Notes under the pieces: model-generated
Database searches by the model: none
What the model saw: the letters and a program-made list of their open reading frames with translations, nothing else
What the model was told of the DNA's origin: nothing
From: a virus
Lineage: Duplodnaviria > Heunggongvirae > Uroviricota > Caudoviricetes
Reading direction: 5' to 3' (one strand)
Virus record (IMG/VR): IMGVR_UViG_2778261227_000006
DNA: 16,208 nt
Translations under genes and position numbers: made by a program
Shown here: positions 1-16,208 of the stretch, one piece after another
How the letters are laid out: each line of letters opens with the position of its first letter
Numbering within the stretch: position 1 is the first letter of the stretch

Positions 1-104
1 GATGAAGCAACGCGGTTAATGGCCATTGCGGCGGCACCGGGCACCGCCGTTCTGCTGATACGGCTGAGGTTTTCAACGGCCTGCTCAAGACCTTTTATGG
101 CCAT
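1..104 (-). CDS. Z: Head completion / tail attachment protein Z, N-terminal part (gene runs off the window start)
   Basis: ATG at 104..102 on minus strand; translation MAIKGLEQAVENLSRISRTAVPGAAAMAINRVAS matches my recollection of lambda gpZ N-terminus; starts 11 nt after the FII stop as in lambda. Confidence 0.8.
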   Translation of the reverse strand, partial: MAIKGLEQAVENLSRISRTAVPGAAAMAINRVAS

Positions 105-115
105 ACATCCCCCTT

Positions 116-469
116 TCAGCGGCGACGGTTAACGGCAGGCGGTACGCCCCGCCCAAGCCAGAGATGACAGCTTCCGCCATCATCCGGCGAAATCCGGTCT
201 ATCCAGAAGTTTTCCTCACCGATGGTCAGCGTGTCGCCGCGCCGCAGCTGCCGCACATCATCAGTCCGGACAAACAGGGACGGGCTGGAGCCTTCAACGC
301 GCACGCCCTGTCCGGCATAGCTGATATTTTCAGGGTCATCAAAAACACCACGTATCACAGCACCGGACTGCTCACCGGATGTCATGGTGGCTGACGTTCC
401 CATGTACCCGCGTATCGTTTCATCGGCGCGGGCAATGGCAGCATCGAACAGGTTATCGAAATCAGCCAC
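116..469 (-). CDS. FII: Head-tail connector protein FII (117 aa)
   Basis: ORF-track protein MADFDNLFDAAIARADETIRGYMG...HLWLGRGVPPAVNRRR is near-identical to lambda gpFII as recalled; start codon here reads GTG (plus cac at 467-469) preceded by GGGAGG Shine-Dalgarno; follows FI stop by 11 nt. Confidence 0.9.
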   Translation of the reverse strand: MADFDNLFDAAIARADETIRGYMGTSATMTSGEQSGAVIRGVFDDPENISYAGQGVRVEGSSPSLFVRTDDVRQLRRGDTLTIGEENFWIDRISPDDGGSCHLWLGRGVPPAVNRRR

Positions 470-480
470 AGCGCCTCCCG

Positions 481-876
481 TTATTGCATTCTGGCCAGGC
501 CGCGCTCTGTCATTTCAGCTGCCACACCGGCAGAGACACGGAACGCCGTTCCCGGCAGCACAAATGCCACAGCCTCATCCCGCGTGGCGTGAAGTGCATC
601 AGTATGCAGCGTCACCAGTGCCACAACCGTGACCAGATCAGCCGTATCAGTCACGGTATCCGGCTGCGCTGATACAACCTCATTTTCATGTCCGGTCAGC
701 GCATTTTCCGGGCTGACAGATGTGTCCTGACCAGCAGCGTCATCCGTGTCATCAAGCTCCTCTTCCAGCTCTGCCACACGGAGTGCCAGTTCTTCTTTCG
801 TCCCCGTCAGGCTGACATCACGGTTCAGTTGCTCACCCAGCACCTGAAGACGGGCAATCAGTTCATCTTTCGTCAT
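481..876 (-). CDS. FI: DNA packaging protein FI (131 aa from ATG at 876; track ORF extends upstream)
   Basis: Protein from MTKDELIARL... to ...TERGLARMQ matches lambda gpFI; ATG at 876..874 preceded by GGAGGAG SD; ORF-track start at 915 is an upstream extension. Confidence 0.88.
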   Translation of the reverse strand: MTKDELIARLQVLGEQLNRDVSLTGTKEELALRVAELEEELDDTDDAAGQDTSVSPENALTGHENEVVSAQPDTVTDTADLVTVVALVTLHTDALHATRDEAVAFVLPGTAFRVSAGVAAEMTERGLARMQ

Positions 877-917
877 GGACTCCTCCACAGAGAGAAAATG
901 GCCCCGAAGGGCCATGA

Positions 918-1943
918 TTACGCCAGTTGTACGGACACGAACGCATCAGGGTCAGCCAGCAGCATCAGCGGTGCTGACTGAATCATGGTGAACTCACGCG
1001 CCGGATCGCCAGTGGTCACCCAGTTTTTCGGGTAGCGGGCAGAGGCGTTAATACCTTCGCGCTGTGCGTCCGCATCCTGAATGCAGCCATAGGTGCGCAG
1101 ACCGCGTGCCTGAGTGTTCCCCAGCACCATCGTGTTGTCCGGCAGGAAGTTCTTTTTGACGTCGTTTTCCACGTACTGTCCGGAATACACGACGATCGCC
1201 GTATCGCCATACATCCCCTTATAGGACACCGCTTCGCCCAGGTCTTTTACCGCTGTCTCCAGCTCGGAATGAGAGCCGCGACGGGTATCCAGCTTCTCCT
1301 TGACGGCTTTGAAGGAACGGAACAGCGCCCAGCCTTTCGGATCAAACACGATGATATTCACCACACCGCTGGCGTTCAGCGCGTAGGCTTCGATATCGTC
1401 GGTCGGGTCATACGTGGACTTGTCACGCTTGCTCCACTCCGTACCGCCGGACTGCGTGATGTTGTTCGCCACACTGCGGCCCATATCCACTTCAACCGGA
1501 TCGAAGGCTTCACCGGTCATGGTATATTTGCCCTTAAGCACGGCAGAAACGGCCTGCATCTCTTCGACCTGAGCAATGGCCAGCTCTTCGTCTCGCATGT
1601 TCTGCAGGATGATGCGACGGCGGCGGTAAGCCGGGTCCGCCAGATTCTGTGGATCTTCATCCGGCAGGCGACGCAGGGTCATCTGCGGATTCACCTCATG
1701 CTTCGGCTTGACATATCCCGGTGTAAATTCAGAGGTGGAGCCGCCACGGGAGCGGATAACCTCACCGGAAACAATCGGCGAAACGTACAGCGCCATGTTT
1801 ACCAGTCCCGGAATTTGTGAGAGATAGACTTTCTCCGTGGTGAAGGGATAGCTCTCACGGAAAAAGAGACGCAGAAACAGCGGATCAAACTTAAATTTCT
1901 TCTCATTTGCCGCCAGCAGCTGGGCGGTTGTGTACATCGACAT
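918..1943 (-). CDS. E: Major capsid protein E (341 aa)
   Basis: Protein MSMYTTAQLLAANE...DPDAFVSVQLA near-identical to lambda gpE; ATG at 1943..1941; the track start at 1970 is a GTG (plus cac) 9 codons upstream and is rejected. Confidence 0.93.
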   Translation of the reverse strand: MSMYTTAQLLAANEKKFKFDPLFLRLFFRESYPFTTEKVYLSQIPGLVNMALYVSPIVSGEVIRSRGGSTSEFTPGYVKPKHEVNPQMTLRRLPDEDPQNLADPAYRRRRIILQNMRDEELAIAQVEEMQAVSAVLKGKYTMTGEAFDPVEVDMGRSVANNITQSGGTEWSKRDKSTYDPTDDIEAYALNASGVVNIIVFDPKGWALFRSFKAVKEKLDTRRGSHSELETAVKDLGEAVSYKGMYGDTAIVVYSGQYVENDVKKNFLPDNTMVLGNTQARGLRTYGCIQDADAQREGINASARYPKNWVTTGDPAREFTMIQSAPLMLLADPDAFVSVQLA

Positions 1944-1978
1944 AAAAAAATCCCGTAAAAAAAGCCGCACAGGCGGCC
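1944..1978 (-). terminator. Intrinsic-terminator-like hairpin with two U7 runs in the D-E intergenic spacer
   Basis: Minus strand reads GCCGC-CUGU-GCGGC (5-bp GC stem, 4-nt loop; plus 1964-1977) followed directly by UUUUUUU, ACGGGA, UUUUUUU and then the E ATG. Confidence 0.4.
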
Positions 1979-1998
1979 TTTAGTGATGAAGGGTAAGG

Positions 1999-2331
1999 TT
2001 AAACGATGCTGATTGCCGTTCCGGCAAACGCGGTCCGTTTTTTCGTCTCGTCGCTGGCAGCCTCCGGCCAGAGCACATCCTCATAACGGAACGTGCCGGA
2101 CTTGTAGAACGTCAGCGTGGTGCTGGTCTGGTCAGCAGCAACCGCCAGAATGCCAACGGCAGCACCGTCGGTGGTGCCATCCCACACAACCAGCTTACGG
2201 GTGGAGGTGTCCAGCATCAGCGGGGTCATTGCAGGCGCTTTCGCACTCAATCCGCCGGGCGCGGTTGCCGTATGTGCCGGGTCACTGTTGCCCAGCGGCT
2301 GGTAATGGGTAAAGGTTTCTTTGCTCGTCAT
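1999..2331 (-). CDS. D: Head decoration protein D (110 aa)
   Basis: Protein [12 protein letters not shown]...FAGTAISIV matches lambda gpD; two ATGs (2337 and 2331); second chosen to give the 110-aa lambda product, with AAGGGA SD upstream. Confidence 0.92.
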
Positions 2332-2340
2332 AAACATCCC

Positions 2341-2946
2341 TTACACTGGTGTGTTCAGCAAATCGTTAACGGCATCAGATGCCGGGTTACCTGCAGCCAG
2401 CGGTGCCGGTGCCCCCTGCATCAGACGATCCAGCGCAGTGTCACTGCGCGCCTGTGCACTCTGTGGTGCAGCTGCCAGAATGCGGCGGGCCGTTTCCACG
2501 GTCATACCGGGGGTTTCGGCCAGCACGCGGGCCTGTTCTTCGCGTCCGTGAGCCTCCTCACAGTTGAGGATCCCCATAATGCGGCTGTTTTCTGCCGCAA
2601 CCGCTGCGGTGATCTGCGCGTTCACATCCGGCTGCGCCGCGCTGGCGTTTTCGCCCTCCGTCGCTGGCACCACGTCAGTAACGTCAGCCTGCGAAGCAGT
2701 GGCTGAAACAGTTGTTGATTGAGTCTCTTTGGTCATTCGCCCTCCTGAGAGACGGGATTTACGTGCATCCAGTGCATCACGCATGACGGTGATCGCATCG
2801 GTGCTGTTAACAAGTTCATCAGCCAGTCCGGCATCAATGGCCTCCTGACCGCTGTACACTGCAGCCTCTGTATCCAGCACAGCCTGCACAGACAGGCCGG
2901 TATATGCCGACACCTTCTGCGCAAACATCTGGCGGGTTGCGTCCAT
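2341..2946 (-). CDS. Nu3: Scaffolding protein Nu3 (201 aa), in-frame internal start nested in C
   Basis: ATG at 2946..2944 (plus cat) in the C frame; product MDATRQMFAQKVSAYTGLSVQ... shares the C terminus with C; 201 aa equals the lambda Nu3 length as recalled. Confidence 0.8.
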   Translation of the reverse strand: MDATRQMFAQKVSAYTGLSVQAVLDTEAAVYSGQEAIDAGLADELVNSTDAITVMRDALDARKSRLSGGRMTKETQSTTVSATASQADVTDVVPATEGENASAAQPDVNAQITAAVAAENSRIMGILNCEEAHGREEQARVLAETPGMTVETARRILAAAPQSAQARSDTALDRLMQGAPAPLAAGNPASDAVNDLLNTPV

Positions 2947-3640
2947 CCGGGACTGCAGTGTCTCCCGGACGTCATCCGGAAGATGGCTGTAGGGGTTGCC
3001 ATCCACCTTATGGCTGCCGCTGTAAATCAGCGTGATTTCCACACCCTGTTTCTCCAGCGCAGCACCGTAATTACTGTGAGCCATCATGACGCCGATGGAG
3101 CCTGTCCGGGCGGTCTGCGTGACCAGACGCCGGGAGGCGGCACTGGCAAGCAGCTGACCTGCACTGCAGTTCATGTCGTTGGCCAGCGCCCATACCGGTT
3201 TTATGTCACGCACACGGGCGATGATGTCAGCGCAGTCAAATGCCCCCGCCACCATCCCGCCGGGCGTGTCCATATCGAGCAGAATGCCGTCCACCATCGG
3301 ATCGCTGGCAGCCTGTTGCAGACGGGCGATAATGCCGTTGTAACCGGTCATCCCCGAATGCGGCTGCAGCGCCCGCGTCCGGCTGACCAGCGTGCCGGAA
3401 ACCGGCAGCACGGCGATGCCGTTCATGACCTGATAACTGCGGGCCTGTCGTGGTCCGTCATCATCACCGGATAACGCCAGCGTCGCGGGTGTCTCCGGGG
3501 CAGTCAGGCTGTCACCGGACACCGCATCTGTCAGGCGGCTGATCCCAAGCTGGCCTGCTAGCGCACAAAAGAAAACCCGCGCATAGGCGGGTTCAAGCAT
3601 CAGCGGCTCATTAAAGGCCATGCTGGCAATATGCGGGAGA

Positions 3641-3660
<20 letters not shown>
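2341..3660 (-). CDS. C: Head maturation protease / scaffold C (439 aa, ClpP/SppA-like serine protease family)
   Basis: Protein from (V)TAELRNLPHIASMAFNEPLMLE... matches lambda gpC; start is GTG at 3660..3658 overlapping the B stop; the track ORF (477 aa) begins at an upstream TTG and is rejected. Confidence 0.9.
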
Positions 3661-7341
<3,681 letters not shown>

Positions 7342-7367
<26 letters not shown>

Positions 7368-7887
7368 TCAGCAACCCCGGTATCAGTTCATCCAGCGCGG
7401 CTGCTTTGTTCATGGCTTTGATGATATCCCGTTTCAGGAAATCAACATGTCGGTTTTCCAGTTCCGGAAAACGCCGCTGCACCGACAGGGGGATCCCGTC
7501 GAGAATACTGGCAATTTCACCTGCGATCCGCGACAGCACGAAAGTACAGAATGCGGTTTCCACCACTTCAGCGGAGTCTCTGGCATTTTTCAGCTCCTGT
7601 GCGTCGGCCTGCGCACGCGTAAGTCGATGGCGTTCGTACTCAATAGTCCCTGGCTGGAGATCTGTCTCGCTGGCCTGCCGCAGTTCTTCAACTTCCCGGC
7701 GCAGCTTTTCGTTCTCAATTTCAGCATCCCTTTCGGCATACCATCTTATAACGGCGGCAGAGTCATAAAGCACCTCATTACCCTTGCCACCGCCTCGCAG
7801 AACGGGCATTCCCTGTTCCTGCCAGTTCTGAATGGTACGGATACTCGCACCGAAAATGTCAGCCAGCTGCTTTTTGTTGACTTCCAT
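7342..7887 (-). CDS. Nu1: Terminase small subunit Nu1 (181 aa)
   Basis: Protein MEVNKKQLADIFGASIRTIQNWQEQGMPVLRGGGKGNEVLYDSAAVIRWYAERD... matches lambda gpNu1 (winged-helix N-terminus); ATG at 7887..7885; cosB lies immediately upstream. Confidence 0.95.
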
Positions 7888-8064
7888 TGTTCATTCCACG
7901 GCCAAAAACAGAGAAAGGAAACGACAGAGGCCCAAAAGCTCGTTTTCAGCACCTGTCGTTTCCTTTCTTTTCAGGGGGTATTTTAAATAAAAACATTAAG
8001 TTACGACGAAGAAGAACGGAAATGCCTTAAACCGGAAAATTTTCATAAATAGCGAAAACCCGCG
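7888..8064 (-). other. cosB region (terminase small-subunit binding region between cosN and Nu1)
   Basis: Reverse complement of this stretch matches the left-end sequence of lambda as I recall it (GGGCGGCGACCTCGCGGGTTTTCGCTATTTATGAAAATTTTCCGGTTTAAGGCGTTTCCGTTCTTCTTCGTC...). Confidence 0.85.
7912..8024. repeat. Three copies of the cosB R element (gpNu1 binding sites)
   Basis: AGAAAGGAAACGACAG at 7912-7927 and its exact reverse complement CTGTCGTTTCCTTTCT at 7954-7969 (16-bp perfect inverted repeat, 26-bp spacer); a related copy AGAACGGAAATG at 8013-8024. Confidence 0.75.
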
Positions 8065-8076
8065 AGGTCGCCGCCC
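8065..8076. other. cosN cohesive-end sequence (12-nt overhang of the mature genome)
   Basis: Plus strand aggtcgccgccc is the reverse complement of GGGCGGCGACCT, the lambda 12-nt cohesive end; flanked on the right by cgtaacctgtcggatcgccgg, matching the lambda right end (cosQ side). Confidence 0.85.
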
Positions 8077-8109
8077 CGTAACCTGTCGGATCGCCGGAAA
8101 GGACCCGCA

Positions 8110-8275
8110 AAATGATAATAATTATCATCTGCATGTCACAACGTGCATCTACGCCATCAAACCACGTCAAATAATCAATTATGACGCAGATATCGTATTA
8201 ATTGATCTGCATCAACTTAACGTAAAAACAACTTCAGACAATACAAATCAGCGACACTGAATACGGGACAACCTC
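8110..8275 (+). promoter_or_regulatory. Putative promoter/operator region of the ynfO-ydfO cassette
   Basis: 17-bp perfect palindrome ATGATAATAATTATCAT at 8112-8128; ATCTGCAT motif at 8127-8134 and 8205-8212 with inverted copy GCAGAT at 8186-8191; AT-rich; -35/-10 not confidently placed. Confidence 0.35.
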
Positions 8276-8509
8276 ATGTCAACGAAGAACAGAACCCGCA
8301 GAACAACAACCCGCAACATCCGCTTTCCTAACCAAATGATTGAACAAATTAACATCGCTCTTGAGCAAAAAGGGTCCGGGAATTTCTCAGCCTGGGTCAT
8401 TGAAGCCTGCCGCCGGAGACTGTGCTCAGAAAAAAGAGTTTCTTCTGAAGCAAACAAAGAAAAGAGTGACATTACTGAATTGCTCAGAAAACAGGTCAGA
8501 CCAGATTGA
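8276..8509 (+). CDS. ynfO: Small protein with ribbon-helix-helix-like N-terminus (YnfO/YlcI-like, 77 aa)
   Basis: ATG at 8276, TGA at 8507-8509; MSTKNRTRRTTTRNIRFPNQMIEQINIALEQKGSGNFSAWVIEACRRRL... matches my recollection of K-12 Qin YnfO; RHH-like strand-helix-turn-helix pattern. Confidence 0.7.
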   Translation: MSTKNRTRRTTTRNIRFPNQMIEQINIALEQKGSGNFSAWVIEACRRRLCSEKRVSSEANKEKSDITELLRKQVRPD

Positions 8510-8566
8510 AGCAATTTAGATAATCGTGCAGACTACGCCCCCTCATATCACATGGAAGGTTTATCT

Positions 8567-8977
8567 ATGGATCAGGTAGTCATTTTTAAACAAATATTTG
8601 ATAAAGTTCGAAACGATTTAAACTATCAATGGTTTTATTCTGAGCTAAAACGTCACAATGTCTCACATTACATTTACTATTTAGCCACAGAGAATGTTCA
8701 TATTGTATTAAAAAATGATAATACAGTGTTATTAAAGGGCCTAAAAAACATTGTGTCTGTCAAATTTTCAAAGGATAGGCATCTTATAGAAACGACCTCT
8801 AATAAGCTGAAATCCAGAGAGATCACATTTCAGGAATACAGAAGAAACCTTGCTAAAGCAGGAGTTTTTCGGTGGGTTACAAATATCCACGAACAAAAAA
8901 GATATTACTATACCTTTGATAATTCATTACTATTTACTGAAAGCATCCAGAAAACTACACAGATCTTACCACGCTAA
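8567..8977 (+). CDS. ydfO: DUF1398-type protein (YdfO/YbcV-like, 136 aa from second ATG; alternative ATG at 8552)
   Basis: [40 protein letters not shown]... matches my recollection of YdfO/YbcV; GGAAGG SD 7 nt upstream of ATG 8567; stop TAA at 8975-8977. Confidence 0.75.
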
Positions 8978-9128
8978 ACCATAACGTCCGGCTTCTCTCA
9001 CTCCTGAGCCGGACTGCATTGGTTTAATAAAAACCATCAACAATTGTGATTTAGATATTCGGAACCATTCAAATATAACAAAACCCCGTAAAAACGAGGT
9101 TTATGGATAAATTTTATTATTGAATACA

Positions 9129-9302
9129 TCAGATTAAATTAATCTTGACATCATAGCTTTCAAGACCCGTCATTTTTTCCCGTGCGGTAAACTGAATACT
9201 GGTAACTTCTTTCCCGGTCTTTTTCTTAAGTTCAATAATTTTTTTTGTTATATATTCAGAAATATCTGCTTCTGCTTTTGTTTTTAAGTTTTCAATATTC
9301 AT
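9129..9302 (-). CDS. gnsB: GnsA/GnsB family protein (57 aa; not in ORF track because under 60 aa)
   Basis: Manual translation of minus strand: (M)MNIENLKTKAEADISEYITKKIIELKKKTGKEVTSIQFTAREKMTGLESYDVKINLI, closely resembling GnsA/GnsB as recalled; tandem ATGs at 9305 and 9302. Confidence 0.7.
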   Translation of the reverse strand: MNIENLKTKAEADISEYITKKIIELKKKTGKEVTSIQFTAREKMTGLESYDVKINLI

Positions 9303-9473
9303 CATTTCCTCTTTTAGTCTGTTATGACTTTCCAGTTACACAGTAAGTCGATTATATGGTGCAAACGTGTAAAAGATAAGATGAAACATCGCAATAATCA
9401 ACATACGATAGTCTAAATTTTACACAAACAGACAAAGAAAATTTTCCTGAATTATCAATACAATAGCATCAAA

Positions 9474-9704
9474 TCAACTCAAGAGCCTTATTGCTGCTTC
9501 CAGAATTTCTTCTGAAGTAACATGTCGATCCGCGGCTACATAAATGACTTTATGATCTCCGGTCAGAGATGGAAACCCTGCGGCCATTACAGTAAGGTGT
9601 GTTTTTTCGCCATTTGGATATTCACGCATGATGGTGTTAACTCCAGTCATCGCTGGCACTACCACTGCAGGTTCAGAGTTAAAAAAAACTATGATTTTTT
9701 TCAT
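9474..9704 (-). CDS. ynfN: Hypothetical small protein in the position of ynfN (76 aa from ATG 9704; a 51-aa product would start at ATG 9629)
   Basis: ORF MKKIIVFFNSEPAVVVPAMTGVNTIMREYPNGEKTHLTVMAAGFPSLTGDHKVIYVAADRHVTSEEILEAAIRLLS; non-repetitive; sits between cspI and gnsB as ynfN does in Qin; no clear SD at either start, so the start is uncertain and the symbol is positional. Confidence 0.5.
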   Translation of the reverse strand: MKKIIVFFNSEPAVVVPAMTGVNTIMREYPNGEKTHLTVMAAGFPSLTGDHKVIYVAADRHVTSEEILEAAIRLLS

Positions 9705-9746
9705 GATGTTACCGTAGTATGTGAGTATCCATCGAATAGATACCAA

Positions 9747-9770
9747 GCAAAAAAGCTCCCGAAGGAGCCT
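9747..9770 (-). terminator. Rho-independent terminator (UUCG tetraloop hairpin + U6)
   Basis: Minus strand: GGCUCC-UUCG-GGAGC followed by UUUUUU (plus 9748-9769); lies downstream of cspI and upstream of the ynfN-like ORF. Confidence 0.6.
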
Positions 9771-9975
9771 TCATTTTCACTTTTTTAAATCCAACGACAG
9801 ACGGCTGGCATTTAAGTATTGTGAAATATTATCAAATGTAATCATCATTGATTTACAAAAGATACATTTTGCCCCGAAAGGATTCATGTCAGAAACATCA
9901 AAAGATGATGTTCTATACTGGGAACCATGACAACACGGGCATCTAAAGTGAATATGGTTTGTAATATTGTCTACC

Positions 9976-10188
9976 TCAAAGCGCCACTACATGAACAGCG
10001 GCAGGACCTTTAGGTCCGTTCTCAATATCAAATTCAACTTCCTGATTCTCAGTTAATGTTTTGAAATCGTTGCTCTGAATTGCTGAGAAATGGACAAACA
10101 CATCTTTGCTGCCATCTTTCGGCGTGATGAAACCAAAACCTTTTTCAGGGTTAAACCATTTCACTAAACCAGTCATTTTGTTAGACAT
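9976..10188 (-). CDS. cspI: Cold-shock protein, CspA family (70 aa, CspI-like)
   Basis: [70 protein letters not shown] with the KGFGFI and VFVHF RNP motifs; ATG at 10188..10186; long AT-rich 5' leader upstream. Confidence 0.9.
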
Positions 10189-10551
10189 AATTATTACCTT
10201 TTGAAGAAATTAGCCCTTGGGCAGAATGGTCCGAAAAAAAATATCAGAGAGAAAAACCAACAAGGAAATCTCAAGAGGTACAAATAATAAAATTATAACA
10301 ATGACTGCTTCAGATAAATTTGTAACAAACCAGAACACCATTAACGCATGATTAACCACCCATAGCAAGGATTACTTTTGTAAAGAAAAACACAGCAATG
10401 AAAGAATAGCTTTATTTATTAATAATAACGTGTCATTCTGATTAAGACCTTTTATCTTACCCTTAAGATTTCAGGAATTTTGGCTCATGGAAGAGTCCTT
10501 TTTATTTAAATTTTACATTCCGCGATGTAAATGTTCCGATTTAATATTACC

Positions 10552-11575
<1,024 letters not shown>

Positions 11576-11579
<4 letters not shown>

Positions 11580-11887
11580 ATATATTTATGATGAGGACGC
11601 TCGTGCTTATTGGCAGGATTTTCAATCTTAAAGGAGTACTGATGCTGCAGATAAGACTCAACTTTTTCTGACAATTTTTCTGCTACTTCCAGGAAGACTT
11701 GCCGGACGCTCCTTCTGGCTGCTGCCTCATAAAACTCCAGCGCAGCTCCTTCAACACGGTCCATGGCGACATCCAGGTCAAAAATTTCACCGTCAAAGCG
11801 TTCTTTGTCCTGTAAGGCTACAGTTACCGTAACTTTATTCTCAAAATTACGGACTCCTTTCACAACCAGTTCATAGTCTTGAGTCAT
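11576..11887 (-). CDS. ydfR: DUF1327-type protein (YdfR-like, 103 aa) inserted between holin and endolysin
   Basis: MTQDYELVVKGVRNFENKVTVTVALQDKERFDGEIFDLDVAMDRVEGAALEFYEAAARRSVRQVF... matches my recollection of K-12 YdfR; ATG at 11887..11885, 5 nt after the holin stop. Confidence 0.75.
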
Positions 11888-11891
11888 TGGA

Positions 11892-12107
11892 TTACTCTCC
11901 TCTCGCAGCCTTACGCCTGTCTTCTTTAATCTTGAAATAAAGATTTGTCAGATACGTCAGCAGGCCAAAAACCAGGCTACCCAGCACACCGATTGCAGCC
12001 CACTGTGACGGAGTTACTTTATCGAGTAACTGCAATGCCCAGAAACCAGCATTACCCGCCGATGTGCCATAGGCAACACCTGTTGTTAACTTATCCATTG
12101 ATTTCAT
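11892..12107 (-). CDS. essQ: Class II holin / pinholin (S21-like, 71 aa) with dual-start motif
   Basis: [71 protein letters not shown]: two TM segments, charged C-terminus, Met1-Lys-Ser-Met4 dual start (ATGs at 12107 and 12098); track ORF start at 12182 rejected. Confidence 0.88.
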
Positions 12108-12326
12108 ATCCTCACCCCGATGTACACGGATGGTGCAATATGTTTGAAAAGATCGGAGTCTACGGGGTAGTTTTGACAGCACACGTTGTTCTCAACGGCG
12201 CTAAAAAAACATACACATTAAAAATGTGGGTAATTATTTTGAAAGAAAGTCATATATAAAATAATAATACGAGAAATGTTTTCATATTTAGTGTACTGTA
12301 TACGGCCATTTATACAGGAAAAGCCT

Positions 12327-12497
12327 ATGTCAGAACGTAAAAACTCAAAATCACGCCGTAATTATCTCGTTAAATGTTCCTGCCCAAACTGCACCCAAGA
12401 GTCAGAACACAGTTTTTCAAGAGTACAAAAAGGTGCCCTTTTGATCTGCCCTCATTGCAACAAAGTATTCCAGACAAATCTTAAAGATGTAGCCTGA
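12327..12497 (+). CDS. Small zinc-ribbon-like protein (56 aa), antisense to the late operon
   Basis: ATG 12327 preceded by AGGA SD (ACAGGAAAAGCCTATG); MSERKNSKSRRNYLVKCSCPNCTQESEHSFSRVQKGALLICPHCNKVFQTNLKDVA with two CxxC pairs 20 residues apart; TGA at 12495-12497; hairpin/terminator about 60 nt downstream. Confidence 0.5.
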   Translation: MSERKNSKSRRNYLVKCSCPNCTQESEHSFSRVQKGALLICPHCNKVFQTNLKDVA

Positions 12498-12556
12498 TTG
12501 ATTTTATTAGTAACAAGTATTTTTTATATTTTAATAATATATTTAAAGCAGATAAT

Positions 12557-12580
12557 AAAAAACCCGCCTGAGCGGGTTTG
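12557..12580 (-). terminator. Rho-independent terminator (strongest on the minus strand; possibly bidirectional)
   Basis: Stem AAACCCGC/GCGGGTTT (12560-12567 / 12572-12579), loop CTGA; on the minus strand the hairpin is followed by UUUUUU-AUUAU. Confidence 0.6.
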
Positions 12581-12860
12581 AGATTGTGGTGCTTTTTGTG
12601 GGAGTCATCCACTTACGCACTTTGTTTTGCCATGCCAGCAGTTAGCTTCTGCTGTAAAACTATTCATGCAGCAAACCTGCACTTCACCACAATGGTTAGC
12701 ATACTTTTCCTGATTAAGATTTTGCCAAATATGCTAGCCATTGTTTCATGTATTGGACCTCCTTACTTTTTATTAAAGAGATCCAATATTCACTACTCTG
12801 TCCGTATCTCTACTCAGGCATCAGCCTTCTTCGTTATCGTATACAGACGAGCGATGAATT

Positions 12861-13076
12861 TTAATCAGTAATGATGACATTTGCTGCTGCAGGACCTTTA
12901 GCACCACTCTCTATAGAGAAGGTAACCTTTTGACCTTCAAATAAGGTTCGATAATTATCATTCTGAATCGCAGAAAAATGCACAAACACATCTTTACTAC
13001 CATCAACAGGAGAAATAAAGCCGAAACCTTTATCAGCGTTAAACCATTTTACTAAACCAGTCATTTTATTTGACAT
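12861..13076 (-). CDS. cspB: Cold-shock protein, CspA family (71 aa, CspB-like)
   Basis: [71 protein letters not shown]; ATG at 13076..13074; TAA at 12861-12863. Confidence 0.9.
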
Positions 13077-13376
13077 TCTACATTCCTTAACTTGAGCCTT
13101 TCGGCATAAATGGTTTGCATAACAGAAACGACTTCGTACTTAATTGGAGAGACTCAAAGAAGGAATAAGTGAATAACACCTGAAATGAGAACTGCTTTAG
13201 TAAACTACTTCGTATATCGTCTGTTCTTCAAACCGACGCAATCATTAACGCATAGTTGAACATATGAAGCAATGTTTATTTTAGACATCCAGCCATCTTC
13301 AACCCCATCAAAAAACTATAGCTTTCTTCAGGAACGTGTGTATAGTGCGCCAAGTTATCAGTATTAAGGAATTTTT

Positions 13377-13589
13377 TTGTCCCGTAAAATGACAGGAATT
13401 GTCAAAACCTTTGACGGCAAAAGCGGCAAGGGTCTTATCACCCCATCCGATGGTCGTATCGATGTCCAGCTTCATGTCTCAGCGCTCAATCTCCGCGATG
13501 CAGAAGAAATTACCACCGGATTACGCGTGGAATTTTGCCGGATAAATGGTCTGCGTGGCCCTTCAGCTGCCAATGTTTACCTTTCATGA
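13377..13589 (+). CDS. cspF: Cold-shock-domain protein (70 aa, CspF/CspH-like), TTG start
   Basis: (M)[69 protein letters not shown]; AAGGA SD at 13366-13370 sits 6 nt before TTG 13377; divergent from cspB. Confidence 0.85.
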
Positions 13590-13643
13590 GCTATATTAAA
13601 GCTTTAATTTCAGGCCCCATCGGATCACACATGGAGAGTTTTT

Positions 13644-13733
13644 ATGAATAACCCCGTCTGTCTTGATGACTGGTTGATTGGCTTTAAAAGCTTATGCTGT
13701 ACTTTGGCCGTAATAGCTCTGCTAATAATATAA
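13644..13733 (+). CDS. Candidate 29-aa hydrophobic mini-protein downstream of cspF
   Basis: GGAGAG SD (13633-13638), 5-nt spacer, ATG 13644; [29 protein letters not shown] then TAA (13731-13733); single predicted TM helix; terminator hairpin follows at 13882. Confidence 0.35.
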
Positions 13734-13881
13734 TAAGCAGACTCATTGTGTTTAGGGACATTGTACTGGAAGAAAACATTTTAAACATCAGGCAAATAAC
13801 CAAGTCACCAGCTAAATAATAAGTTAACAGACATGAGTCCCGGGATGAGATTCAACATTACCATTGCCCCATTTAAAGCAC

Positions 13882-13917
13882 AAAACCCGCTCATCAGCGG
13901 GTTTTCTACTTTTTCTT
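13882..13917 (+). terminator. Rho-independent terminator (plus strand, cspF transcript); possible tR'-like hairpin on minus
   Basis: Stem AAAACCCGC/GCGGGTTTT (13882-13890 / 13897-13905), loop TCATCA, then CTACTTTTTCTT on plus; on minus the same hairpin is followed by UUUUGUGCUUU. Confidence 0.55.
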
Positions 13918-13950
13918 AACGTCGGGTATACAAAGCCCATCGTTGAAAAA

Positions 13951-13978
13951 ATTTTATCCATATTTTTTGAAAAATGCA
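13951..13978 (-). promoter_or_regulatory. Candidate late promoter (pR'-like) just downstream of Q
   Basis: Minus strand TTGCAT (-35; plus 13973-13978), 16-nt spacer, TAAAAT (-10; plus 13951-13956), about 30 nt after the Q stop codon and about 45 nt before the hairpin. Confidence 0.4.
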
Positions 13979-14010
13979 AACATCATGTCGCCATCTTCAG
14001 CAAAAATCAT

Positions 14011-14763
14011 TTATCTCGTCACCTTCCTCAATTGCGCTTCCGCGTATGCTTCTTCCTGCCAGCACTTTGTTACCAGTTTACCAATGACGTCCGCATACCC
14101 CTTATACCACTGATAATCGGTCAGGTCTGGTACCAGCTTCTGGACATGACGTCGTGCCAGCGTGGTCGGTAAACGACTAAACCGGTTTCCATTACAACGC
14201 CCACAAATCTTATATACCGGTACGCCATGAAACCGGGTTCTTTTTTCATCCAGAACAATCCCTTTACCCTTACACCCTCTGCACGCTGTGCTGGCTTCGC
14301 CCTTACCATGGCAATGCTGACATAGTTCCTTCACCCATTCTTCCTTGATTACAGATTCCCCGCGTCTGTAGTGTTTCACCACTTCGCGCAATACATTATA
14401 AAATCCCGTACCTGAACAATGCTCACAGCGAGCCTTACTTGCCGCAGACCTGGAGTAATCAGCAAAGGCAAAACTCACGAGGTAAGGAATAATCTGTAAC
14501 CGGATTTCTTCACTCAATTTGTTCAATGTCGGGTTATCCAGTGCCATCGCGTAATTTAGCAGGCCTTCAATCGCAAACTGAGGGTCCTGAACACCAACTT
14601 TTGCCAGAAATAAGGCCAACCCAAGTGGTGCTTTCGACTGCACCATCCCCTGCGCTGCCATTACATCCGTAATTGTTAAACAACCGGTGCCTGTCGCTGG
14701 AGCGTCATCGCTCAATTTTGGAGATTTTGGGGAGTAATATTTTGGTAAGGCTTCAAGGTTCAT
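14011..14763 (-). CDS. quuQ: Late-gene antiterminator Q (250 aa, Qin/phage-21-type)
   Basis: MNLEALPKYYSPKSPKLSDDAPATGTGCLTITDVMAAQG... with C-terminal Cys/His cluster (CEHCSGTG, CQHCHGKG, CRGCKGKG, CGRCNGN); ATG at 14763..14761; track start at 14793 rejected. Confidence 0.85.
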   Translation of the reverse strand: MNLEALPKYYSPKSPKLSDDAPATGTGCLTITDVMAAQGMVQSKAPLGLALFLAKVGVQDPQFAIEGLLNYAMALDNPTLNKLSEEIRLQIIPYLVSFAFADYSRSAASKARCEHCSGTGFYNVLREVVKHYRRGESVIKEEWVKELCQHCHGKGEASTACRGCKGKGIVLDEKRTRFHGVPVYKICGRCNGNRFSRLPTTLARRHVQKLVPDLTDYQWYKGYADVIGKLVTKCWQEEAYAEAQLRKVTR

Positions 14764-14776
14764 GCTCGTTCTCCAC

Positions 14777-15826
14777 TTACGCCAGTACGCCAATTGCCAG
14801 CGCGCGATCGATAAAACGAAATATCAGCTCCAGTTGGGAGCCATACTTATCTTCAAATGCCACTGTATCCGTATGCAGCTCGTTGTGATGCTTTCTGCAC
14901 AAAGGCAACACAAAGAGATCATGTGCTTTTGTTCCCATTCCGCCCTGCCCGTGACCAATCAGATGATGCGGATCGTCGGCTGGCATACCGCAGCAAGCAC
15001 ACGGCTGTGTCTTAACCCAACGTGTGTATTTCTCCTTAACCCAGCGGCGACGTTTAGGCAGCTTCATGAAAGATTCCGGAGACTCTGGATCAACGGTGAT
15101 GCTTACCACCGTCTTTTCCTGTGGTGATTTTTGTTGCTGGTGGGCGTAAGGCAACGGTGCAAGATTTTTTGTGCGTTGTTTCAATATGCTGGTGGCGGTC
15201 TGCTCTCCCGGTACGATGTCGCTTTCGCGGTACACCGAGCAGATTTTTTCCGCTGGTAATCCCAGCGAACGACGCGATACAGCCTCAGGTAGTGCATCCA
15301 CCACCTGATTGCAGACCGCCCACCAGGATAATTCAGCCAAAGATAATTCCCGCTCCTGCGTACCGCTTATTGCGTGACGGATGACGTCAATCACCCATGC
15401 TGTCAGATTTTGTTGAGCAAGCAGCTCCAGTGATTCCGATGTCTGGTCACGCAGTTGGTTGTCGCAGTGCCAGCACAACACCATTGCGCCGGTACCATAA
15501 CGGTGAATGACTGTTTCAGTGTGATGGTAATCGCCATTAGGCCACTGGCAGGATGTAACATGACGTAATAGCCAGTCGGACAATGCGCCAACGCCGCCAG
15601 CAGCACGAATCACCCGTTCGTTACTAAAAAACGGCAGCAATGTTTTGTCTTCCGCCAGCGGCTGGCGAACGGCAGGAACGACTCCGGATGGCAGATTACG
15701 CATGCTTTTTGGTTCCGGTTCCACCAGCACTCGAGGATTATGAAATATCTGTATGGATTCACGGCCCGGCTTAAGGACCACCAGCCCAAGCTCAGGCACC
15801 AGAACAGGTCTAAGTAATACCCGCAC
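14777..15826 (-). CDS. ydfU: DUF968-type protein with HNH-like Cys/His motif (YdfU-like, 349 aa, GTG start)
   Basis: GTG at 15826..15824 preceded by GGAGGT SD gives 349 aa; C-terminal motif CACCGMPADDPHHLIGHG...LCRKHHNELH; stop 13 nt upstream of the Q start. Confidence 0.75.
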   Translation of the reverse strand: MRVLLRPVLVPELGLVVLKPGRESIQIFHNPRVLVEPEPKSMRNLPSGVVPAVRQPLAEDKTLLPFFSNERVIRAAGGVGALSDWLLRHVTSCQWPNGDYHHTETVIHRYGTGAMVLCWHCDNQLRDQTSESLELLAQQNLTAWVIDVIRHAISGTQERELSLAELSWWAVCNQVVDALPEAVSRRSLGLPAEKICSVYRESDIVPGEQTATSILKQRTKNLAPLPYAHQQQKSPQEKTVVSITVDPESPESFMKLPKRRRWVKEKYTRWVKTQPCACCGMPADDPHHLIGHGQGGMGTKAHDLFVLPLCRKHHNELHTDTVAFEDKYGSQLELIFRFIDRALAIGVLA

Positions 15827-15827
15827 G

Positions 15828-16208
15828 TTACCTCCAGATCCGTTGCTGGAAAGTGCGGGACGCACGTGGTGGGCGTTCGGAATAAGGCAGCCTGACAGAG
15901 ATTATCCAGTGCCGATAGTCGAGACTGAGAGCTTTCTTAACCTCGAACCCGCGCCTGCGGTAAGAATGAATCAGCCATTCGGCCTGTTCTGCAGTGCATG
16001 GAGGGTGCTGGAACCATTCAGACTTGAATGCGTGAGAATACCGCCCGTGCGTGCAGGCAAGAACGGGCGAATTATCAGAATTGTAATATTTTGCGTTGCG
16101 TGCCATCGGTTTTCTCCGGTGGCACGGTGTTTGAACCGCCCCGGGTTTCCTGGAGAGTGTTTTATCTGTGAACTCAGGCTGCCAGATCATCGTTTCCGAT
16201 GGAAGCAT
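15828..16208 (-). CDS. Hypothetical protein upstream of ydfU (start uncertain: ATG at 16106 gives 92 aa; frame stays open to the window edge)
   Basis: Open frame ending TAA at 15828-15830, 1 nt before the ydfU start; candidate start MARNAKYYNSDNSPVLACTHGRYSHAFKSEWF... with GGAG about 7 nt upstream; not recognised. Confidence 0.4.
   Translation of the reverse strand: MLPSETMIWQPEFTDKTLSRKPGAVQTPCHRRKPMARNAKYYNSDNSPVLACTHGRYSHAFKSEWFQHPPCTAEQAEWLIHSYRRRGFEVKKALSLDYRHWIISVRLPYSERPPRASRTFQQRIWR

Follow-up and report, generated by a model that had tools for sequence, protein, structure and literature searches.

A lambda-type cos site and its packaging genes in an undeleted relative of the cryptic prophage Qin

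Background: cos sites of lambda and its relatives

An integrated lambdoid prophage is always circularly permuted relative to its virion DNA, with cos joining the lysis end to Nu1. Because of this permutation, finding cos inside a prophage is normal and no special feature. In the lambda genome (NC_001416), the site comprises cosQ (48473-48479), cosN (48502/1-12) and cosB (bp about 50-167). Phages 21 and N15, as well as phage-inducible chromosomal islands (PICIs), share with lambda 12-base 5' cohesive ends, a conserved cosQ and a layout in which cosN is followed by cosB (PMC4669245, PMC9026076). In cosB, the small terminase subunit, TerS, binds mainly at R3, and R1 is an accessory TerS site (PMC4669245). 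TerS probably contacts bp 55-63 of R3; packaging is affected by changes at bp 56, 58 and 59, and the spacing from cosN to R3 is critical (PMC9026076). On the protein side, the recognition helix of TerS occupies residues 17-24 and the wing residues 31-39 (PMC9026076). Finally, cosQ is needed to terminate packaging at the downstream cos (PMC4669245).

The DNA considered here, called the window throughout, is a stretch of 16,208 nucleotides from a tailed-phage record (IMGVR_UViG_2778261227_000006). Its minus strand was aligned to lambda NC_001416 with the right and left ends joined, and also to the prophage-form junction of phage DE3, which has an annotated cos feature. Borders of the subsites were taken from the curated annotation of phage 434 and from Feiss et al. 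2015 (PMC4669245) and 2022 (PMC9026076).

Layout of the site

Positions 7888-8110 of the window very probably represent the authentic cos of a lambda-type temperate phage, in prophage (circular) order and with the lambda orientation on the minus strand. Read on that strand from 8110 to 7888 (223 bp), the site is a complete lambda-type cos, and the order and spacing of cosQ, cosN, R3, I1, R2, R1 and Nu1 equal lambda's in the alignment to the joined lambda ends. The subsites are as follows:

8100..8106, minus strand: cosQ, GGGTCCT, identical (7/7) to lambda 48473-48479 and 24-30 bp upstream of the cohesive end
8065..8076, minus strand: cosN cohesive end, GGGCGGCGACCT, 12/12 against lambda
8012..8027, minus strand: cosB R3, minus-strand sequence AGGCATTTCCGTTCTT, lambda bp 50-65, 15/16 against lambda
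7991..8003, plus strand: cosB I1, predicted IHF-binding site, AAACATTAAGTTA, 13/13 against lambda and equal to the phage 434 site at bp 74-86
7953..7968, plus strand: cosB R2, CTGTCGTTTCCTTTCT, 16/16 against lambda, in opposite orientation to R3 and R1
7912..7927, minus strand: cosB R1, plus-strand sequence AGAAAGGAAACGACAG, 16/16 against lambda

From lambda 48400 through bp 137 the two sequences are colinear with zero indels, the window position being 8077 minus the lambda position. The alignment contains 7 differences from lambda in the interval from cosN to the Nu1 start and 2 in the interval from cosQ to cosN. The annotated landmarks of other phages fall into register as well: the DE3 cos feature aligns at the window cosN, and the cosQ feature curated for phage 434 has an offset equal to that of the window cosQ, with the R2 position in the same annotation offset by 1 bp. 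The extent of R3 follows PMC9026076 and the phage 434 annotation.

The plus strand at 8065-8076 reads AGGTCGCCGCCC, the left cohesive end of lambda in reverse complement. At one mismatch or fewer, this 12-mer has its sole match in the 16.2-kb window here (shuffles expect 0.06), and the flanks of cosN, with their rotationally symmetric base pairs, are identical to lambda from 48487 through bp 53. The lambda cohesive end that an earlier note on this DNA had reported at 8065-8076 is therefore both exact and unique in the window, and alignment to the lambda cos leaves both nicking positions unchanged. By homology, nicks would be expected between 8076 and 8077 on the minus strand and between 8064 and 8065 on the plus strand, giving 12-base 5' overhangs.

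The same note had described a perfect 16-bp inverted pair of R elements, and the 16-mers at 7912-7927 and 7953-7968 are indeed exact reverse complements. It had also placed a third R copy between cos and Nu1. That copy, R3, is indeed on the Nu1 side of cosN, but it comes ahead of the inverted pair, not after it. R3 is degenerate: just 11 of 15 positions agree with the R1/R2 core, too few for it to stand out statistically by itself, and it is recognized through its homology to the R3 of lambda. The predicted IHF site, I1, is located between R3 and R2, and the lambda change A73G (window 8004) falls just outside it. Both I1 and cosQ are inside the 7888-8110 interval that the note had assigned to cos, though it mentioned neither.

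Rfam and tRNA scans of the window found nothing in or near cos; their only matches were two cspA-type leaders, both away from the site. These are full-length matches to the cspA thermoregulator (RF01766) at 12845-13237 and 9949-10334 (minus), with scores of 158.8 and 112.6 bits, and they form the leaders of the prophage cold-shock genes cspB and cspI, sited among the late genes.

Genes on either side of cos

Nu1 lies directly downstream of cos, with its start at 7887, and is followed by A and by a block of head genes, W to FII, that spans 116..5445 on the minus strand:

7342..7887, minus strand: Nu1, terminase small subunit TerS, 181 aa, Pfam Phage_Nu1 (2.4e-101)
5442..7367, minus strand: A, terminase large subunit TerL, 641 aa, Pfam GpA_ATPase and GpA_nuclease
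5239-5445, minus strand: W, 100% identical to lambda
3641-5242, minus strand: B, portal, 8 substitutions against lambda
2341-3660, minus strand: C/Nu3, with 7 substitutions in C and 2 in Nu3 against lambda
1999-2331, minus strand: D, 3 substitutions against lambda
918-1943, minus strand: E, 9 substitutions against lambda
481-876, minus strand: FI, 131 aa against 132 in lambda, 88% identity
116-469, minus strand: FII, 4 substitutions against lambda

Nu1 equals its lambda counterpart at 178 of 181 residues. Residues 1-47 are identical, and none of the three changes (K48R, A75T and L132I) falls in the recognition helix (residues 17-24) or the wing (31-39). Since these DNA-reading parts are spared, the packaging specificity of the element is predicted to be lambda's at the level of sequence. 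The A gene has a GTG start, as in lambda, and its product carries 7 substitutions, with no stops. Among the head proteins, identity to lambda is 97-99.5% for B, C, Nu3, D, E and FII, and the annotation of a 99.4%-identical E. coli sequence, CP104114, agrees on the head genes. The earlier claim of a full-length terminase and of full-length head genes throughout is borne out for the window, with no internal stops; the sequence likewise agrees that the cos lies within the window and joins lysis-side genes to an intact terminase.

One member of the set stands apart in its divergence: FI is by far the most diverged of the packaging and head proteins, at 88% identity against 97-100% for the others.

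The lysis side of cos opens with two genes, both transcribed in the direction of the lysis genes and named as in RefSeq for CP104114 and K-12:

8276-8509, plus strand: ynfO, Pfam DUF3950
8567-8977, plus strand: ydfO, Pfam DUF1398

The right end of lambda (from ~48303 downward, minus strand) also holds a ynfO (DUF3950) homologue that is unannotated in NC_001416. Its first 49 residues equal those of the window protein, after which it diverges, stopping at 64 aa against 77 aa in the window.

Relation to the cryptic prophage Qin

Qin, a cryptic prophage of E. coli K-12 (NC_000913, 1632277-1652745), is 99.7% identical to window 7359-16131 (8,773 bp). The earlier note had connected the two through their gene order to the right of cos. 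That order is certainly shared, but gene order alone understates a relationship that amounts to this level of identity along the whole stretch. The Qin-family gene set is present with its order kept: ynfO, ydfO, gnsB, ynfN, cspI, rzpQ, rrrQ, ydfR and essQ, and then cspB, cspF, ydfT and ydfU. The stretch in common begins with cosN, cosB and Nu1 residues 1-176 (nohA), takes in ynfO, ydfO, gnsB and cspI, and continues through the lysis genes, cspB, cspF, Q and ydfU. Over window 7359-8092 Qin is identical to the window, cosN and the entire cosB included, even to the A at R3 bp 54 (A54). It also keeps the cosQ heptamer, and at ten positions just beyond, in a patch at 8093-8152, it is lambda-like.

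Homology between Qin and the window begins abruptly at ~7359, in the overlap of Nu1 and A. At that point a deletion in Qin fuses the end of Nu1 to stfQ, removing A, all of the head genes and most of the tail genes. The K-12 nohA gene accordingly encodes Nu1 residues 1-176 (176/181) followed by 13 unrelated residues from the deletion joint. The loss in Qin is thus a single deletion that runs from the Nu1/A overlap into the tail-fiber genes and leaves cos untouched, and the element in the window is an undeleted relative of Qin. The contrast that the earlier note had drawn with a defective Qin stands insofar as Qin is without A and the head genes, but cos is not what differs, as the same cosN and cosB are kept in both. 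In the literature, a search for nohA, Qin and cos gave unrelated matches and nothing of relevance.

A smaller difference concerns ynfN, which is frameshifted in K-12 relative to the window. The window copy (9474-9704, minus) has an open frame of 76 aa, against 51 aa for the 5'-truncated ynfN annotated in K-12, and the truncation is due to a 1-bp deletion (an A at window 9681 against a gap).

Phage PhiR42_1 and occurrence in E. coli

A still longer match is found in Escherichia phage PhiR42_1 (PV340562.1), whose record is labeled 'complete genome' and names ECOR13 in the host field. Its 223-bp cos is 100% identical to that of the window. PhiR42_1 is 99.0% identical to window 1-16131 (16.1 kb) with the same gene content, and between 7341 and 8520 it differs at 3 positions, all outside cos. 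Nucleotide divergence is ~1%, and the last 77 bp of the window leave the homology; the element is essentially this deposited phage. A search of the literature found no paper on how PhiR42_1 or the PhiR phages were obtained, and the viability of the phage is taken from its GenBank record.

Homology to Qin, to PhiR42_1 and to several of the closest E. coli genomes stops at the same position, 16131. The last 77 bp (16132-16208) are matched by only a subset of genomes, a mosaic boundary located upstream of ydfU.

Of 5,426 complete E. coli genomes, 3,982 (about three quarters) have the cos at full length at least once, at a median of 2 places and a maximum of 8 per genome. At least 80% of the 16-kb arrangement is found in 455 of the 5,426.

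An intact cos is, by itself, no proof of an active phage, because Qin keeps the same cosN and cosB in a dead element. It could then be argued that the cos and head module are intact in a prophage that is defective outside the window, much like Qin, and that the cos is a silent relic, usable only where a lambda-specificity phage, co-resident or superinfecting, makes good the missing functions. We regard this as unlikely, though it has several points in its favor: Qin has retained its identical cosN and cosB, with a lambda-identical cosQ side, in a prophage that is without A, head and tail genes; IS insertions are present in this region in several of the nearest E. coli matches; and the window covers only 16 kb of a roughly 48-kb element, with the tail, replication, immunity and integration genes outside it. 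Against such a relic, none of the ten packaging and head frames is broken and their identity to lambda is 88-100%, which would be unexpected after long decay. Moreover, a 99.0%-identical element has been deposited as a complete phage genome, and the large arrangement recurs in the several hundred E. coli genomes counted above. The cos of a lambda-type temperate phage remains the preferred reading, and nothing in the sequence speaks against it.

A hairpin at the R2/R1 repeat

Late transcription in lambda is Q-antiterminated. The late-sense RNA of the R2/R1 repeat (7980-7900) is predicted to form a long hairpin at -34.8 kcal/mol; against shuffles its z is -5.0, and 0 of 200 reached that stability. 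It is followed by CUGUUUUUGG, a U-run, and this terminator-like structure, which is also found in lambda, sits just upstream of Nu1. Such a strong fold and its U-run could mean that the chief role of the repeat is that of an RNA hairpin or intrinsic terminator upstream of Nu1, and not that of a pair of protein sites. That is improbable. A consensus terminator scan of 7700-8400 gave 1 terminator-like site against 1.0 expected, which is not above expectation, and made no call at the repeat. The identical sequence in lambda has, in addition, been established by experiment as TerS-binding sites (PMC4669245, PMC9026076). Of course, hairpin and protein-binding roles are not mutually exclusive, and R2 and R1 are read here as parts of cosB.

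The G54A change and the patch beyond cosQ

The single substitution inside any subsite is G54A in R3 (window 8023), which removes the G of a CGTTTCC core common to the R1, R2 and R3 of lambda. The change lies outside bp 55-63, and both bp 55-63 and the spacing from cosN to R3 are unchanged from lambda. A54 is a common natural allele of R3: of 120 sampled IMG/VR contigs with the cosN-to-R3 stretch, 30 have it, as do PhiR42_1 and K-12 Qin. Among the 28 A54 contigs that could be scored, 27 have cosQ, I1, R2 and R1 all intact, and the remaining one is without the cosQ heptamer only. A literature search found no experiment on R3 bp 54.

On the other side of cosN, the patch at 8093-8152 has ten substitutions within 60 bp when set against either lambda or K-12 Qin, and those two sequences are the same at each of the ten positions. 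The flanking DNA is nearly identical, and the window's version of the patch is common to PhiR42_1 and E. coli CP104114. It looks like a small mosaic or gene-conversion patch just past cosQ that has spared the cosQ heptamer. The patch improves a weak promoter-like match, GTGACA-16 bp-TATCAT, running from 8139 to 8112 on the minus strand towards cos. The consensus promoter scan of 7700-8400 gave 2 promoter-like sites against 0.9 expected from shuffles and so was not above expectation.

Taken together, G54A and the patch might be thought to mark a packaging specificity distinct from that of lambda, as in phages 21 and N15, given that G54 belongs to the core of all three lambda R elements and that the patch departs from both lambda and Qin. 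We consider this very improbable. Known shifts in specificity couple TerS helix residues 20 and 24 with R3 bp 56 and 59 (PMC9026076), whereas the window has lambda's own helix, bp 55-63, R2 and R1, and its patch leaves the cosQ heptamer unaltered. K-12 Qin, for its part, pairs the same A54 cosB with a lambda-type cosQ side. The specificities of phages 21 and N15 themselves are excluded by the lambda recognition helix and by R3 bp 55-63.

Weakest of all is the notion, scarcely credible, that this is the cos of a PICI hijacking a helper terminase: cosQ and cosN of PICIs are near-identical to those of lambda and similarly spaced, but a PICI cos is without R repeats or an R3 match and leads into rpp with no TerS gene (PMC9026076), whereas the window has R3, I1, R2 and R1 followed by Nu1, A and the full head set, and its R elements and Nu1/A rule a PICI cos out.

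Packaging by a lambda-like terminase

The site of a lambda-type phage would be expected to work as follows, by homology to lambda (PMC4669245, PMC9026076) and with the sites, geometry and proteins seen in the sequence. A complex bound at cosB would anchor gpA, which would nick cosN at the two positions given above, 12 bp apart. The complex on the cosB end would then dock on the portal, and DNA would be translocated towards Nu1, A, the head genes and beyond, filling proheads made of B, C, Nu3, D and E. The end of packaging would come at the next cos of the concatemer, by way of cosQ (8100-8106) and cosN. The cos and packaging genes appear competent as sequences, and at that level the view of the earlier note that the prophage looks packaging-competent is supported; from this we infer cleavage and packaging.

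If so, the site fixes the expected virion ends of the prophage and makes the element a candidate for an active phage of lambda specificity, one that could also act as a helper for cos-bearing islands and cosmids. Beyond annotation the significance is small, the main by-product being a picture of the loss in Qin, with the deletion endpoint in the Nu1/A overlap.

Because E. coli genomes carry a median of two copies of the cos and up to eight, packaging across prophages can also be conceived. The terminase of an intact element might act on like-oriented cos sites of other prophages, even defective ones such as Qin, and could package the chromosome between two cos sites that are phage-length apart, which would give cos phages a counterpart of lateral transduction. 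Another idea is that the A54 allele might adjust the dependence on IHF or the efficiency of packaging. These ideas are long shots, and nothing specific to the window supports either.

Comparison with known cos systems

On the packaging side, the window closely follows lambda. Window 1-8076 is 97.6% identical to lambda 8080-1, and window 8077-8438 is 95% identical to lambda 48502-48141. The two share subsites, order, orientation and spacing; cosQ, cosN, I1, R2 and R1 are identical, as are the DNA-reading residues of Nu1. They differ by G54A in R3, by six further substitutions or indels in the spacer DNA from cosN to Nu1, and by the ten substitutions in the 60 bp beyond cosQ. Homology to lambda extends ~900 bp into the lysis side of cos, through ynfO and ydfO (lambdap78). 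Beyond ydfO the window carries gnsB, ynfN, cspI and the Qin lysis cassette, whereas lambda has bor, Rz, R and S.

The window does not match the remaining systems. In phage 21, the R sequences and the TerS helix differ from those of lambda, which the window matches. N15 has a single R3 and no IHF site, and here again the window matches lambda instead. The PICIs have no R elements and carry rpp in place of a TerS gene, as opposed to the R3, R2, R1, Nu1 and A of the window. What the window carries is a textbook lambda cos, in the normal prophage arrangement, of a sort found in most E. coli genomes.
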